NCBI RefSeq assembly: GCF_003334335.1
Contig: NZ_QOWQ01000007.1
Direction: 5' to 3' (one strand)
Length of the DNA: 64,000 nt
Origin: Escherichia coli
GTDB taxonomy: Bacteria; Pseudomonadota; Gammaproteobacteria; Enterobacterales; Enterobacteriaceae
Below are positions 2,487 to 59,624 of the stretch, piece after piece (the stretch's first letter is position 1; the number at the start of each line of letters is the position of its first letter). Both the position numbers and the translations under genes were made by a program. The notes under the pieces were generated by a model, which was not told the DNA's origin, did no database searches, and was given only the letters and a program-made list of their open reading frames with translations.

Positions 2487-3539
2487 ATGTTTTTAGCATC
2501 ATTGTTGAGACGTATTGCATTTAGTTACTACGATTATAAAGCTTATAATTTCAATATTGAAAAAACAGACTTTGTTGTCATCCATATTCCCGACCAGATT
2601 GGCGATGCTATGGCCATCTTTCCTGTTATTCGGGCGCTTGAATTGCATAAAATTAAGCATCTTTTAATTGTTACGTCGACAATTAATTTAGAAGTGTTTA
2701 ATGCACTTAAACTTGAAAAGACTAAATTAACATTAGTCACAATGACTATGCAGGATCACGCAACATTAAAAGAAATAAAAGATTTAGCAAAGAACATAAC
2801 ACAGCAATACGGTACGCCGGATCTTTGTATAGAGGCGATGCGTAAAAAGAACCTGAAAACGATGATATTTATCAGTCAGTTGAAAGCAAAAACGAATTTT
2901 CAGGTTGTTGGTTTAACCATGAAGTGCTACTCCTCTTTGTGCAAGAACGCGTCCCGGATGGATCAGAATCTCCGGGCTCCCGTACCCATGACATGGGCAT
3001 TTATGATGCGTGAGGCGGGTTTTCCAGCAGTCAGGCCAATATATGAATTGCCACTAAGTGAGGATGTACTCGATGAGGTGCGCGAGGAAATGCGATCGTT
3101 AGGATCTTACATTGCGCTTAATTTAGAAGGTAGCTCGCAGGAACGTACATTTTCATTATCGATTGCAGAAAATCTAATAGCAAAAATTCAAAGTGAAACA
3201 GATATACCAATAGTGATCGTTCATGGACCAAAAGGGGAAGATAAAGCCAGGGTATTAGTGGATTGTTATAATAATGTCTACCGTTTATCCTTATCACCCT
3301 CGATTAAACGTTCAGCAGCAATCATAAAAGATGCTTATATCGCAATAACTCCTGACACCTCAATATTACATATGGCAAGTGCCTATAATACTCCCGTTGT
3401 TGCAATTTATGCTGATTACAAAACGCGATGGCCCGCAATGGCCGATGTTTCGGAGTCAGTCGTCGTTGGGCAAAAAATTGACAATATAAGTCTGGATGAA
3501 TTCGCAAAGGCATTAAAAAGTGTTTTGGCGAGAATATGA
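2487..3539 (+). CDS. yeeL: family-9 glycosyltransferase (heptosyltransferase-like), apparently intact
   Basis: 350-aa ORF; C-terminal motif ITPDTSILHMASAYNTPVVAIYAD resembles GT9 nucleotide-sugar binding region; GGAGG upstream of ATG; position between shiA and yeeJ; AT-rich. Confidence 0.7.
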   Translation: MFLASLLRRIAFSYYDYKAYNFNIEKTDFVVIHIPDQIGDAMAIFPVIRALELHKIKHLLIVTSTINLEVFNALKLEKTKLTLVTMTMQDHATLKEIKDLAKNITQQYGTPDLCIEAMRKKNLKTMIFISQLKAKTNFQVVGLTMKCYSSLCKNASRMDQNLRAPVPMTWAFMMREAGFPAVRPIYELPLSEDVLDEVREEMRSLGSYIALNLEGSSQERTFSLSIAENLIAKIQSETDIPIVIVHGPKGEDKARVLVDCYNNVYRLSLSPSIKRSAAIIKDAYIAITPDTSILHMASAYNTPVVAIYADYKTRWPAMADVSESVVVGQKIDNISLDEFAKALKSVLARI

Positions 3540-3800: not shown

Positions 3801-11783
<7,983 letters not shown>

Positions 11784-12096: not shown

Positions 12097-12172
12097 TGGC
12101 TCCTCTGACTGGACTCGAACCAGTGACATACGGATTAACAGTCCGCCGTTCTACCGACTGAACTACAGAGGA
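12097..12172 (-). tRNA. asnT: tRNA-Asn (GUU)
   Basis: Reverse complement matches the tRNA-Asn sequence (TCCTCTGTAGTTCAGTCGGTAGAACGGCGGACTGTTAATCCG...CCA). Confidence 0.95.
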
Positions 12173-20034: not shown

Positions 20035-20886
20035 TTAACCCGCATAAGCTGCCAGCATTTCCTGCGCCGCCAGTTTACCCAACGCATTCGCTGCGAAAGG
20101 ACTGTCGCCGGTGAGAACTTTACGGTCCTTATGTACTCGCCCGGCGATGTCGTCATTAATAATGTTCATGCCCATTTTCTTCAGCTCTTCGCCGAAGTAC
20201 CAGGTGAGATGACCCGGCATATAGCCTATCTCTGGCGTTTGTTTGTCTGCGGCGTCTGGGAATGCGCAAATGGAATAACCATTCAGTGGGTTATCGCCGT
20301 GGCGAAGCGCCAGAAAAGCCGCCGGGCCGTGGCAAAGGGAGATAACAAAACGGTCATTTTTGATTGCCCACTGTAAAGCAGCAGCCACGTCCTGGCTTTC
20401 TGGTAGACCAATAAGTGCGCCATGACCACCAGGAACAAAGATTGCTGCATATTCGCTATCAGCGTTGAGGCTGGCGACAACATCCGCGAGTTTCTTCGGA
20501 TTGCGGAACAACGATTTATGCTGCTCAAAGAATGGCATTACTTTTTCATCTTTGTGCGGCATAGCCCAGTATTCAAACTTGGTCATCAGACCGGAAATGG
20601 TCGCCACTTCGAATTCGAAACCTGCAGCATGGAGATGATACAACGGCAGCAACGTTTCAATCGGATGGTTACCGGTCGAGAACAGTTTTCCGTTATCGGT
20701 CGGCAAATAACGTTCGTCCGCGGCGATCACCAGAATTTTATGTTTACCGCGATACGGTTTTGGATAGTCCACGCCATCAAGATCAGAGACAGGACTGGTA
20801 TATTGGCTAAGCGAATATTCTGAAGGGAAGAATGCATTATCTTCAGCAATATCGACCTGCGGATTTTTACTTGTTTGAACAGTCAT
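20035..20886 (-). CDS. hchA: glyoxalase III / Hsp31 chaperone (DJ-1/PfpI family)
   Basis: 283-aa ORF recognised as HchA; synteny. Confidence 0.9.
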   Translation of the reverse strand: MTVQTSKNPQVDIAEDNAFFPSEYSLSQYTSPVSDLDGVDYPKPYRGKHKILVIAADERYLPTDNGKLFSTGNHPIETLLPLYHLHAAGFEFEVATISGLMTKFEYWAMPHKDEKVMPFFEQHKSLFRNPKKLADVVASLNADSEYAAIFVPGGHGALIGLPESQDVAAALQWAIKNDRFVISLCHGPAAFLALRHGDNPLNGYSICAFPDAADKQTPEIGYMPGHLTWYFGEELKKMGMNIINDDIAGRVHKDRKVLTGDSPFAANALGKLAAQEMLAAYAG

Positions 20887-21396
20887 AGTGTATTCCTTAT
20901 TGTTGCTTAGTTAGGGTAGTCACTATATTTGCGACTGAGCTGGTCGCTATTTTTAACCAGGCTGGAAAATTGAGTCAATATATCGAAAGCGGTAGTCGGC
21001 GGGTGTAAGTATGTAATGATGATGCTGCACTGGTGTTGAATATTATTCACGCCAAATTTTCCTTATTGAGCAACGTCGTCGCAAGTGGCCTCAATGATTT
21101 TAGACCATTATCAGAGGTACGGGGCGGCGGGGAGAGATTTAGTGATGTGGAATATTGTGGTGCTGATGAATATTTATATCCCGGATTGGTAGAGAAAAAG
21201 CTTATTTCATGCACTATTTTTGCAAATATTTCTATATGGGAGGCGGTTTTGTTGCAGATTAATTCATAAAGAAATGCATTTGGGTCTTGGCTGGAAGAGT
21301 CGCTGGTAGATGTTATTGTGCCAGCAGGGGCAGGGTAAGGTGCTGTATCGATATGCTTTGGCAATTGCGCGTGCCGCAGAGGGAGATAAAATGCCA

Positions 21397-21435
21397 ATAA
21401 AAAAGCCTGAGTTCGATGAGGGACGAACTCAGGCT
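21397..21435 (-). terminator. intrinsic terminator downstream of yedS
   Basis: agcctgagttcg...cgaactcaggct hairpin followed by T-run on the minus strand. Confidence 0.6.
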
Positions 21436-21477
21436 AGTGTTAAGTTTTACAGTAACACGCCGCGGCGCGTTGGCTGA

Positions 21478-22536
21478 TTAGAACTGGTAGACGATACCAA
21501 ATGCGAGTTGGTCGTCGGTGTTCAGTCCATGAGCGAGAACATAATCACTCTTATCAAGCAGGTTGATCTGATAAGCGGTATATACGTTCATGTTCTTATT
21601 GAAGTAATACCAGGTACCGATTTCAATGTAGTTCAGACGATCAGAATCTTTGTAACCTGCTACGTCCAGTGCTTTAGAATAGGAGTAACCGATGGATGGA
21701 CGCAGACCGAAGTCGAACTGATATTGCAGAACAGCTTCGAAGTTTTGTGTTTTGTTCACAACATCACCGTCGTCGGAATTCATGTTGTGAGATTCACCGT
21801 ACATCACAGCAGCATAGACGTTGTTGGCATCATATTTTGTTGACAGTGCCCAAACTTCTGCTTTTTCACCTTTACTATCACTAGACTGGAAATCAGTACG
21901 ATCAGAGTTTGCGTAAGCACCAGCAAATGAGAAACCGTCAATAGTGTAAGTTACAGATAAACCATGGCCATCGCCATTTGCTTTGTAGTTGCCTGTACCT
22001 TCATTTTTACCCTGATATTGCAGAGCAAAATTTAGACCTTCAACCATGCCAAAGAAATCTGTGTTACGATAGGTTGCAACACCGTTGGTACGGTTGGTCA
22101 TGAACAGGTCAGTACCAGCCCATGAATCACCGCCCCACTCAACAAACATATCAGTAAATGCTTCTGCATCATACGCGACACCGACATTACGACCATAGTC
22201 GAATGAACCAAAATCTTTGTAACTCAAACCAGCATAAGCCAAACGAGTTTGGTCAGGGTTGTCTCTGTTTGATGCTTCCAGGTCTAGTTCAAACTGACCG
22301 TAACCAGTCAATTCAGGGTTGATCTGAGTTTCACCTTTCACGCCTACACGGGCATAAGAGGTATCTTGAGAATTATCGCCTTTTTCACCATTTTCACGGT
22401 CGGTCAGAATGCGCTCACCAACCATCTTGCCGTACAAATCCAGTTTATTGCCATTTTTATTATAAATTTCAGCCGCATTTGCTGCGCCAGCAACTAATAA
22501 CGCCGGGACCAGCATTGCCAGAACTTTTCTTTTCAT
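21478..22536 (-). CDS. yedS: outer-membrane general porin (OmpC/OmpF family), intact
   Basis: ORF track 21478..22566; start trimmed to MKRKVLAMLVPALLVAGAANA signal peptide; porin N-terminus AEIYNKNGNKLDLYGK and C-terminal ...AFGIVYQF. Confidence 0.85.
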   Translation of the reverse strand: MKRKVLAMLVPALLVAGAANAAEIYNKNGNKLDLYGKMVGERILTDRENGEKGDNSQDTSYARVGVKGETQINPELTGYGQFELDLEASNRDNPDQTRLAYAGLSYKDFGSFDYGRNVGVAYDAEAFTDMFVEWGGDSWAGTDLFMTNRTNGVATYRNTDFFGMVEGLNFALQYQGKNEGTGNYKANGDGHGLSVTYTIDGFSFAGAYANSDRTDFQSSDSKGEKAEVWALSTKYDANNVYAAVMYGESHNMNSDDGDVVNKTQNFEAVLQYQFDFGLRPSIGYSYSKALDVAGYKDSDRLNYIEIGTWYYFNKNMNVYTAYQINLLDKSDYVLAHGLNTDDQLAFGIVYQF

Positions 22537-22845
22537 TATGTATTCCCTTGTGATTATAATCTTCATGAATATATCAATAAGTGCCGTTATCCAAAAAAAA
22601 GCACATTTGGATACTATTCTATGAAGTTCATTTTATTTTAAGGATTACATGTAACAAATGTATTTAAAAGATTTCAAAATGTTTCTAATCTATTTAATAT
22701 AATTCGGAATTATGAATTCTAAATATAAATATTCATGAAAATTATAAATGTATATCAATATGTTATGAGTTGAGCGGAAACATAGGGGGTATCAATGATT
22801 GTTGCGCCAAACGACTGGTGTGATCAGGCGCACATTAATGAAGGC

Positions 22846-22878
22846 ATAAAAAAAAGCCGGCATCATGCCGGCCCAAAA
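22846..22878. terminator. bidirectional hairpin terminator in yedS-yedR intergenic region
   Basis: aaaaaaaa-gccggcatcatgccggc-ccaaaaaa: perfect palindrome flanked by A-run and, on the other strand, T-run. Confidence 0.5.
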
Positions 22879-23102
22879 AATATAAACAAGACGATAAAAG
22901 GCTAATAACGGAAGCATCATGACACAGAATAATAAAAAGGTATAATTGTAATCAGTGCTAATATATTGATTAAATGAATTAATAAAGCCGATATCAAAGA
23001 TAAATAAAATCGCTCAAAACGATTTTTCCTGTATTCACTGCCGTTGCGCAAAATTTATCTATTTGTTCAAAAAATGATTGAGTCTTGACTGGCTCATCCA
23101 AT

Positions 23103-23468
23103 GTGGAAAAATGTGACTTTTATCACATAATAGTACTAAGTCTGAATTTTCCGGGTTATCTCAAAATGGAATACGGTTCGACAAAGATGGAAGAGAGACT
23201 CTCTCGCAGCCCTGGTGGCAAACTGGCTTTGTGGGCTTTTTATACATGGTGTGGCTATTTCGTCTGGGCAATGGCGCGTTACATCTGGGTGATGAGCCGG
23301 ATCCCCGATGCTCCCGTGTCGGGATTTGAAAGCGATTTAGGCTCTACCGCGGGAAAGTGGTTAGGGGCACTGGTCGGATTTTTATTTATGGCTCTGGTCG
23401 GGGCATTGTTAGGCAGCATTGCCTGGTACACCCGACCTCGTCCCGCACGTAGCAGACGCTATGAATAA
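23103..23468 (+). CDS. yedR: small inner-membrane protein
   Basis: ORF track 23085..23468; two predicted TM helices; GTG at 23103 would give 121 aa, exact start uncertain. Confidence 0.65.
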   Translation: MEKCDFYHIIVLSLNFPGYLKMEYGSTKMEERLSRSPGGKLALWAFYTWCGYFVWAMARYIWVMSRIPDAPVSGFESDLGSTAGKWLGALVGFLFMALVGALLGSIAWYTRPRPARSRRYE

Positions 23469-23507
23469 AAACTGCTAAGGTGGCGACTCTTTGGCAACGG
23501 AGCGCGT

Positions 23508-24203
23508 ATGGACTTACAACACTGGCAGGCACAGTTCGAAAACTGGTTGAAAAACCATCATCAGCACCAGGACGCGGCCCATGACGTGTGTCATTTTCGC
23601 CGCGTCTGGGCTACGGCACAGAAGCTGGCGGCAGATGACGACGTCGATATGCTGGTGATTTTAACCGCCTGTTATTTTCACGATATTGTGAGCCTGGCGA
23701 AAAATCATCCGCAAAGGCAGCGTTCTTCAATCCTGGCAGCAGAAGAGACGCGTCGCCTGCTCCGTGAAGAGTTCGTGCAATTTCCGGCGGAGAAAATTGA
23801 GGCCGTTTGTCATGCCATTGCCGCTCACAGTTTCAGCGCGCAAATCGCCCCCTTAACAACGGAAGCTAAAATCGTCCAGGATGCGGATCGGCTGGAAGCC
23901 CTGGGGGCGATTGGCCTGGCGCGCGTGTTTGCCGTTTCAGGGGCATTGGGCGTGGCGCTGTTTGATGGTGAAGATCCGTTCGCACAGCATCGCCCGCTTG
24001 ATGATAAACGCTACGCCCTGGATCATTTCCAGACTAAGTTGCTGAAGCTACCGCAAACCATGCAAACCGCAAGAGGCAAGCAGCTGGCGCAGCACAACGC
24101 GCATTTTTTAGTCGAGTTTATGGCGAAGCTCAGTGCCGAACTGGCGGGGGAGAATGAAGGTGTCGATCACAAGGTGATAGATGCGTTTTCACCCGCGGGA
24201 TAA
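23508..24203 (+). CDS. yedJ: HD-domain phosphohydrolase
   Basis: 231-aa ORF with HD motif (CYFHDIV). Confidence 0.85.
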
Positions 24204-51228: not shown

Positions 51229-52875
51229 ATGGCACAAGTCATTAATACCAACAGCCTCTCGCTGATCACTCAAAATAATATCAACAAGAACCAGTCTGCG
51301 CTGTCGAGTTCTATCGAGCGTCTGTCTTCTGGCTTGCGTATTAACAGCGCGAAGGATGACGCAGCGGGTCAGGCGATTGCTAACCGTTTTACTTCTAACA
51401 TTAAAGGCCTGACTCAGGCTGCACGTAACGCCAACGACGGTATTTCTGTTGCGCAGACCACCGAAGGCGCGCTGTCCGAAATCAACAACAACTTACAGCG
51501 TATTCGTGAACTGACGGTTCAGGCGACGACCGGAACTAACTCCACCTCTGACCTGGACTCCATTCAGGACGAAATCAAATCCCGTCTCGATGAAATTGAC
51601 CGCGTATCCGGCCAGACCCAGTTCAACGGCGTGAACGTACTGTCTAAAGATGGCTCGATGAAAATTCAGGTCGGCGCGAACGATGGCGAAACAATTACTA
51701 TTGATCTGAAGAAAATTGACTCTGATACGCTGGGGCTGAATGGGTTTAATGTGAACGGCAAGGGGGAAACGGCTAATACGGCAGCAACCCTGAAAGATAT
51801 GTCTGGATTCACAGCTGCGGCGGCACCAGGGGGAACTGTTGGTGTAACTCAATATACTGACAAATCGGCTGTAGCAAGTAGCGTAGATATTCTAAATGCT
51901 GTTGCTGGCACAGATGGAAATAAAGTTACAACTAGCGCCGATGTTGGTTTTGGTACACCAGCCGCTGCTGTAACCTATACCTACAATAAAGACACTAATT
52001 CATATTCCGCCGCTTCTGATGATATTTCCAGCGCTAACCTGGCTGCTTTCCTCAATCCTCAGGCCGGAGATACGACTAAAGCTACAGTTACAATTGGTGG
52101 CAAAGATCAAGATGTAAACATCGATAAATCCGGTAATTTAACTGCTGCTGATGATGGCGCAGTACTTTATATGGATGCTACCGGTAACTTAACTAAAAAT
52201 AATGCTGCTGGTGATACACAAGCTACTTTGGCTAAACTTGCTACTGCTACTGGTGCTAAAGCCGCGACCATCCAAACTGATAAAGGAACATTCACCAGTG
52301 ACGGTACAGCGTTTGATGGTACATCAATGTCCATTGATGCCAATACATTTGCAAATGCAGTAAAAAATGACACTTATACTGCCACTGTAGGTGCTAAGAC
52401 TTATAGCGTAACAACTGGTTCTGCTGCTGCAGACACCGCTTATATGAGCAATGGGGTTCTCAGTGATACTCCGCCAACTTACTATGCACAAGCTGATGGA
52501 AGTATCACAACTACTGAGGATGCGGCTGCCGGTAAACTGGTCTACAAAGGTTCCGATGGTAAGTTAACAACGGATACGACTAGCAAAGCAGAATCAACAT
52601 CAGATCCGCTGGCAGCTCTTGACGACGCTATCAGCCAGATCGACAAATTCCGCTCCTCCCTCGGTGCCGTTCAAAACCGTCTGGATTCTGCGGTGACCAA
52701 CCTGAACAACACCACTACCAACCTGTCTGAAGCGCAGTCCCGTATTCAGGACGCCGACTATGCGACCGAAGTGTCCAACATGTCGAAAGCGCAGATCATT
52801 CAGCAGGCCGGTAACTCCGTGCTGGCAAAAGCCAACCAGGTACCGCAGCAGGTTCTGTCTCTGCTGCAGGGTTAA
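51229..52875 (+). CDS. fliC: flagellin (filament protein; H antigen)
   Basis: 548-aa ORF with N-terminus [54 protein letters not shown] and C-terminus ...[12 protein letters not shown]; variable Thr/Ala/Gly-rich centre. Confidence 0.95.
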
Positions 52876-59166: not shown

Positions 59167-59624
59167 TTATTTTCCTCGTCATGTTGCAATGAAAATTTGC
59201 GGTGAAAAATGTTAAGGCGGCGGAGTATACCATAAGCTTTGCTAAAAATAGCAGTGGTTGTTTTTTGAGCGTGATATCGGCAGTGCTATAAAATACGTTA
59301 ATATAATGACCAATAAATATTTTTATCATGAATGTTTTTTGCCCGTATTGTTCGGGTTAATTAATGTTACATATTCAGCGGGCTGATTTTCATTTTTGCT
59401 GAATAAAGTCAATTTTTGTCACATTTCATCGTAGGGCTTACTGTGAAACGATCCGGTAAGCCGTTGGTGACGGGCGTGACCATAACTGTGGACAATCGAA
59501 TTGACAAAAACGAGAGAAAAATCGAATACCCACCATTTTTAACGTTTCAAAGTTGCAATAAAAACCGCTAATATACGAATGACTAACTATCAGTAGCGTT
59601 ATCCCTATTTCTGGAGATATTCCT

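Follow-up and report, generated by a model that had tools for sequence, protein, structure and literature searches.

The porin gene and its surroundings

The window considered here (the whole stretch of Escherichia coli DNA that was analysed, 64 kb in length) carries on its minus strand, at 21478..22536, an ORF of 352 codons plus stop (stop codon at 21478..21480, minus strand), in which neither the ORF listing nor the translation contains an internal stop codon. RefSeq annotates this gene at the same coordinates simply as a 'porin' (WP_069888990.1), the precursor being 352 aa and the mature chain 331 aa long. The protein starts with a Sec signal peptide, MKRKVLAMLVPALLVAGAANA, whose codons (22474..22536, minus strand) are identical in every class in the alignment of the alleles A to D described below, and which ends at an ANA|AE cleavage site; the mature chain then opens AEIYNKNGNKLDLYGK. 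This site was placed by comparison with solved mature chains: the mature N-terminus is AEIYNK, and the crystallised OmpK35, PhoE, OmpF and OmpE35 chains have the same start in the PDB alignment. At the other end the protein terminates in ...GIVYQF, with the G-x-x-Y-x-F motif and the terminal Phe both present, and a C-terminal aromatic residue, as in this YQF, is of the type that the BAM assembly machine recognises.

The start codon was set at 22536, as both the RefSeq annotation and all other alleles begin MKRKVLAMLV there, and a Shine-Dalgarno sequence (AAGGGA) is found 7 nt before this ATG. An alternative start at an upstream ATG (22566), taken from the mechanical ORF list, was rejected, as it adds 10 residues before the signal peptide, which does not vary between the alleles. 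Downstream, a strong intrinsic terminator at 21404..21435 (minus strand; a 12-bp stem, 7 pairs of which are G-C, around a loop of 8 nt and then a T-run) begins 43 nt past the stop codon, in a spacer which is 90-100% conserved across allele classes. An earlier note on this DNA had described, without giving a strand, a complete porin ORF with signal peptide, conserved N-terminus and C-terminal Phe, followed by a clean terminator. All of these were found, on the minus strand, with the stem and T-run of the terminator running from 21435 to 21404, and the internal frameshift or stop that the note feared it might have missed is absent from the translation of the 352 codons.

The porin sits at the yedS (ompS1-position) locus. 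Its gene order is hchA (20035..20886), porin, rseX (22849..22938), drpB (23187..23468), yedJ, dcm and vsr, within a wider arrangement that runs amn, shiA, ..., msrQP, hiuH, hprRS, hchA, porin, drpB (yedR), yedJ, dcm, vsr, yedA, ..., fli genes, ..., uvrC, pgsA. The whole locus is 100% identical to the chromosome of E. coli strain 1506 (NZ_CP059288.1; human, Hangzhou). The gene order is the same in K-12 W3110, and the flanks are 91-100% identical to K-12 outside the mature-protein codons (spacer alignment); the order published for K-12 is yedS'-rseX-drpB (PMC7648144). In W3110 the place of the porin is taken by a gene with the annotation 'porin OmpC, frameshifted; internal stop', and three-frame translation reveals a TAG after ...NNGFFG and a change of frame further on, so that the statement in the earlier note of a fragmented yedS pseudogene in K-12 is borne out.

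The next gene upstream, which like the porin gene is on the minus strand, is the small RNA gene rseX (22849..22938); it matches Rfam RF01401 over its full length (97.7 bits, for a gathering score of 50) and has its own terminator at 22874..22854 (minus strand) according to the terminator scan. This adjacency is kept in all allele classes. RseX is an Hfq-binding small RNA, reported as a repressor of ompA and ompC. No RNA element beyond rseX was found by a permissive Rfam scan of 20800..23600. The spacer between hchA and the porin (20887..21477, 591 bp) is 90-100% conserved whatever the allele class, with a strong G-over-C skew. One locus tag (RS08850) is skipped at this place in RefSeq, and a small hypothetical ORF is annotated there in some genomes; the spacer has no Rfam match and the porin terminator is the only element identified in it. 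On the other side of rseX, sampled O157:H7 genomes carry a frameshifted drpB (L006 3516..3796; L007 3257..3537) together with a decayed porin gene at the locus.

Several other features of the window may be mentioned. A gene for a 2,660-aa protein with Ig-like domains (3801..11783, minus strand) adjoins tRNA-Asn (12097..12172), which is the position of a YeeJ-type inverse autotransporter adhesin. An intact family 9 glycosyltransferase gene (2487..3539, plus strand), which presumably corresponds to the yeeL pseudogene of K-12, is an ordinary one: among 5,426 complete E. coli genomes, 4,940 contain 80% or more of it, with identities of 95-99%. Finally, a flagellin gene of the FliC/FljB family (548 aa) is located between fliD and fliA at 51229..52875 (plus strand), and a 72-nt remnant, a partial pseudogene ('transcriptional regulator') by its annotation, lies between yecU and uvrY at 59412..59483 (minus strand).

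Family placement, fold and pore of the protein

Residues 27-352 of the protein match the Pfam Porin_1 model (PF00267) over all of its positions (1-337 of 337; E 4.7e-110, 368.6 bits). Scores against the three named NCBIfam models are 413.5 bits for the OmpF equivalog (NF007446, cut-off 583), 409.4 bits for the PhoE equivalog (NF007544, cut-off 599) and 391 bits for the OmpC subfamily (NF007841, cut-off 484). As all of them are below the respective cut-offs, the name given by PGAP is just 'porin'. The attribution to an 'OmpC family' in the earlier note can therefore be kept only in its loose sense, that of the OmpC/OmpF/PhoE superfamily (Porin_1): the protein is not a member of the OmpC subfamily, which it misses with 391 bits for a required 484, and both its OmpF and its PhoE scores are higher.

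A sequence search of the PDB returned full-length matches to OmpK35 of Klebsiella pneumoniae (409-445 bits, 409 for the mature protein), to the Omp35 of Klebsiella aerogenes (406 bits; 5o78, titled Omp35 of Enterobacter (Klebsiella) aerogenes in the Foldseek table), and to the E. coli porins PhoE (367 bits), OmpF (330-369 bits, 330 for the mature protein) and OmpC (314 bits). Protein identity is about 62% to OmpK35 and about 56% to PhoE, and the nearest proteins outside E. coli are porins of K. oxytoca, at 69% identity. By these comparisons the protein is a general porin of the OmpF/OmpC/PhoE superfamily, nearest to the OmpF-type porins OmpK35 and Omp35.

The earlier note had suggested an alignment and a barrel prediction, and both agree with an intact porin. 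Alignment to the solved porins covers the full length, with gaps confined to variable stretches between the conserved blocks, and no conserved block is missing in a family alignment of 31 sequences (query included). An AlphaFold2 model built from this alignment (pLDDT 75, pTM 0.73) has its best Foldseek matches in OmpF and OmpK35, with TM-scores of 0.82-0.89 and a probability of 1.00 over about 340-350 columns. The model is weak in L3, where residues 137-149 have a pLDDT below 50, and pore geometry was thus considered from sequence conservation only.

Alignments with PhoE and OmpK35 indicate that the basic ladder of the OmpF constriction (K16, R42, R82 and R132) is entirely conserved in the porin, as are the acidic L3 residues D113, E117 and D121 (OmpF numbering). 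The sequence of loop L3, TDMFVEWGGDS, is also that of OmpK35. In PhoE, anion selectivity is determined by K125; the aligned position of the porin carries an Asn (FMTNRTNG, versus FMTKRASG in PhoE), and the net charge of the mature chain is -21. On all these comparisons, an OmpF-type general diffusion channel is better supported than a PhoE-like or an OmpC-like one. The protein is thus predicted, from its sequence and model, to be a trimeric 16-stranded general diffusion porin, whose channel would be filled with water, weakly selective for cations and open to small hydrophilic solutes, beta-lactams among them.

One residue of the last beta-strand (AFGIVYQF) deserves a comment. Codon 346 (21495..21497) encodes a Phe in the window and in the class-A sublineage that is 99% identical to it, and a Val in the 97% class-A sublineage and in most homologues (20 Val, 5 Met, 4 Leu and 2 Phe in the 31-sequence alignment). 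This change is probably harmless, as the residue would be lipid-facing if the strand alternates as usual.

Allele classes, frequency and selection

The spacer between hchA and drpB was aligned whole across classes, and identity was scored in successive 100-column blocks. The locus is polymorphic: the mature porins encoded between its conserved flanks fall into at least four classes that have diverged deeply. Class A (352 aa) is represented by the intact genes of the window and of strain LTC101, class B (357 aa) by an intact gene in EC22, and class C (371 aa) by an intact gene in CB209. Class D (393-404 aa) is intact in NCTC9699, A36, KK19-02 and S42, has a frameshift and an internal stop in K-12, and is frameshifted in O157:H7 PNUSAE146743. 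Two additional copies were not classed: one is frameshifted, with an adjacent IS30, in O104:H4 FDAARGOS_348, and the other is split by IS1203 in O157:H7 F3113. At the protein level, class A is 68-69% identical to B or C and 59% identical to D, while B and C share 90% identity; with this last pair set aside, identities between classes range from 59 to 69%. The OmpC subfamily cut-off (484 bits) is passed by class D (535-542 bits) and missed by the three others.

Coming from hchA, identity to all classes is 90-100% as far as the stop codon. In the segment between 22499 and 22798, which comprises signal peptide, UTR and promoter region, the window is again 96-100% identical to the B, C and D loci. 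Between these flanks, nucleotide identity in the mature-protein codons falls to 24-87% per 100-column block against classes B, C and D (24-79% per 100-column block against the class D alleles of K-12 and O157), so that the class boundaries are codon-sharp: divergence spans 21482..22498, that is, from the stop codon to within the signal-peptide codons. With flanks as conserved as these, it is unlikely that the four classes occupy different chromosomal positions. Such a combination of shared flanks and divergent mature codons argues that the porin of the window is not a repaired K-12 yedS, but belongs to a different allele class. Judging from the alignment, class A is a divergent allele or replacement at yedS, not the intact counterpart of the K-12 fragments; the decayed copies in K-12 and O157:H7 belong to another class, the OmpC-like class D.

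Class A is ordinary, not unusual, among E. coli. A megablast search with the variable region of the gene, in which counts were binned by coverage and identity, detected it at 95% nucleotide identity or more in 1,166 of the 5,426 complete genomes (about 21%); the match extends over 80% or more of that region in 1,143 of them. Carriers include ATCC 8739, 'Seattle 1946', NC101, CE10 and an ST648 strain, and the 90% protein cluster to which the porin belongs has 2,356 member sequences. All seven class-A copies that were sampled are intact, a figure which comes, like the others on intactness, from a small sample, the hit tables having no pseudogene flags; one IS-interrupted class-A copy (H7) appears in the hit table. 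The porin of the window differs by 2-5 substitutions from the commonest class-A proteins.

Two sublineages can be distinguished within class A, with 20 synonymous and 10 non-synonymous differences between them, i.e. a dN/dS of 0.13 for a synonymous-site divergence of about 9%. As this ratio indicates purifying selection, class A is functional in the evolutionary sense. The term 'functional' used in the earlier note holds in this sense, a coding-intact gene under purifying selection, and is limited to it.

Divergent mature sequences between conserved flanks are what would be expected under diversifying or frequency-dependent selection, with recombination, on a surface protein. The yedS locus may be a site for porin 'cassettes', where long-term balancing selection, or selection driven by phages, colicins or immunity, acts on a supposedly 'quiescent' porin, although we put this idea forward as a tentative one, more doubtful than not. 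If it is true, E. coli must express and expose this porin under natural conditions, and allele class might predict susceptibility to phages or colicins, or beta-lactam entry in strains without OmpF and OmpC. We found no description in the literature of this four-class, cassette-like polymorphism or of an OmpK35-like class A.

Expression, alternative readings and known porins

The 312 bp between the porin ATG and rseX (22537..22848, minus strand), which contain the 5' UTR and the promoter region, have a G+C content of 28% (0.279), for 43% in the porin CDS and 49% in the window. A promoter scan found two weak sigma-70-like sites here (22723..22696 and 22657..22630), which are not in excess of chance, as 6 sites were found over the region scanned and 8.2 were expected. 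In K-12, H-NS represses rseX 'and surrounding areas' (PMC8313858). The yedS gene has been equated with ompS1 (PMC2731931), which in Salmonella Typhi is a quiescent porin gene, silenced by H-NS and StpA and activated by LeuO (PMC4264507). Low expression is to be expected from the conjunction of a 28% G+C upstream region, H-NS repression near rseX and a quiescent ompS1, and by analogy this suggests H-NS silencing of the AT-rich promoter region, with low laboratory expression. The porin would then probably be held low by H-NS, as are Salmonella ompS1 and the rseX/yedS region of K-12, and would matter mainly on derepression or when both OmpF and OmpC are lost.

A carbapenem-resistant clinical isolate without OmpF and OmpC is said to have expressed a functional YedS (Warner et al. 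2013, Antimicrob Agents Chemother 57:1935), with MarA and MicF reportedly involved in its regulation, and that YedS may be of a class other than A. The study is cited in PMC4048246 and PMC11267920, and a one-line summary in the citing literature associates carbapenem resistance with an active yedS and with the inactivation of marR. We calculated the thermodynamics of the duplex between the 5' end of MicF, for which E. coli genomes gave matches of 100% identity, and positions -80 to +30 of the porin. The value obtained was -11.1 kcal/mol, and 72% of shuffled sequences were as good; the ompF control reached -27.4 kcal/mol, and the best MicF site anywhere between -312 and +150 of the porin reached -15.3 kcal/mol. 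Direct pairing of MicF with the translation-initiation region of the porin thus found no support in this thermodynamic prediction, its signal not exceeding background, and any MicF effect on class A may be indirect or act elsewhere.

Taken together, these data make it very probable that the gene is an intact allele at the yedS locus, encoding a classical trimeric 16-stranded general diffusion porin closest to OmpK35/Omp35. An intact gene could nonetheless be a cryptic one, permanently silenced by H-NS and without any role in permeability, and its intactness would then merely reflect a recent acquisition or too little time for decay. The low G+C content of the upstream region and of the CDS (28% and 43%, for 49% in the window) fits such a gene, as do the H-NS silencing of the rseX region in K-12 (PMC8313858), the description of the Salmonella homologue at this position as quiescent (PMC4264507), and independent decay in K-12, O157:H7 and O104:H4, including through IS insertion. 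Permanent silencing is however difficult to reconcile with a dN/dS of 0.13 at about 9% synonymous divergence, which points to long-term purifying selection, or with the intactness of the seven sampled class-A copies and the existence of intact members in classes B, C and D. As S. Typhimurium ompS1 mutants are moreover attenuated in mice (PMC4264507), we regard a cryptic class A as unlikely.

Two other explanations question whether the product of the gene is a general OmpF-type channel in working order. It is highly improbable that class A is a specialised PhoE-like porin, selective for anions or phosphate. The NCBIfam PhoE score does nearly equal the OmpF score (409.4 and 413.5 bits), and E. 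coli PhoE outscores mature E. coli OmpF in the PDB search (367 versus 330 bits), but the former score is far under the PhoE equivalog cut-off of 599 and the best matches of all are OmpK35 and Omp35, which are OmpF orthologues. The Asn at the K125-aligned position and the mature net charge of -21 argue in the same direction; PhoE-like specialisation was rejected on this Asn and the sub-cut-off score. Even less credible is an open frame that hides a subtle defect, for example a barrel unable to assemble. Nothing was found in favour of such a defect, beyond an AlphaFold2 confidence that is just moderate (pLDDT 75), and it is opposed by gaps that fall in variable stretches only when compared with solved porins, by a C-terminal G-x-x-Y-x-F motif and a full set of conserved blocks (31 sequences), by evident purifying selection, and by the few substitutions (2-5) that separate the protein from the commonest class-A proteins.

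Several practical points follow. Class A should be annotated as a real, intact minor porin, neither as a 'yedS pseudogene' nor as OmpC. Clinical E. coli without OmpF and OmpC may still admit beta-lactams via the class A porin, a route reported for YedS in 2013, and predictions based on porin loss that are blind to the locus and to the allele class can mislead, since beta-lactam uptake may persist through a yedS porin. The proposal of the earlier note that an extra general porin could alter permeability is supported as plausible. The sharp-edged, multi-allelic divergence suggests that phages, colicins or the host do encounter this porin, in spite of its reputation as a silent one. That intact yedS porins exist is already known, as they are annotated in RefSeq, common in E. 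coli and published as 'functional outside K-12', and nothing here should surprise a specialist. A 'putative porin with 50% homology to YedS' has also been reported in the outer-membrane fraction of an STEC, the text giving no accession for it (PMC9731836).

Among known systems, the K-12 yedS pseudogene (b1964-b1966; ompS1 in PMC2731931) shares with class A the locus, the signal peptide and flanks that are 95-100% identical, among them the terminator and the 5' UTR with the promoter region. However, this pseudogene and its intact relatives (393-404 aa) form an OmpC-like class, 59% identical to the 352-aa class A. Salmonella OmpS1, silenced by H-NS and StpA and activated by LeuO and OmpR, was compared by description: the AT-rich promoter region and the adjacent rseX of class A fit a silenced minor porin of this kind, although the class D alleles, judging from their length and OmpC-likeness, are more likely the OmpS1 counterparts. 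With E. coli OmpF, PhoE and OmpC, class A has in common the Pfam family, the 16-strand barrel and the constriction residues K16/R42/R82/R132 and D113/E117/D121, but it scores under each NCBIfam cut-off and is devoid of the K125 of PhoE. The closest relatives in both sequence and fold are the OmpF orthologues OmpK35 and Omp35 (PDB 5o77, 9hn1, 5o78; 405-445 bits, TM-score up to 0.89), which share the L3 motif VEWGGD and the constriction residues with the class A porin, but which belong to another genus and another locus. The loops differ as well: in class A, L1 (TDRENGEKGDNSQD) is longer, and the segments that correspond to L6 and L7 are shorter.
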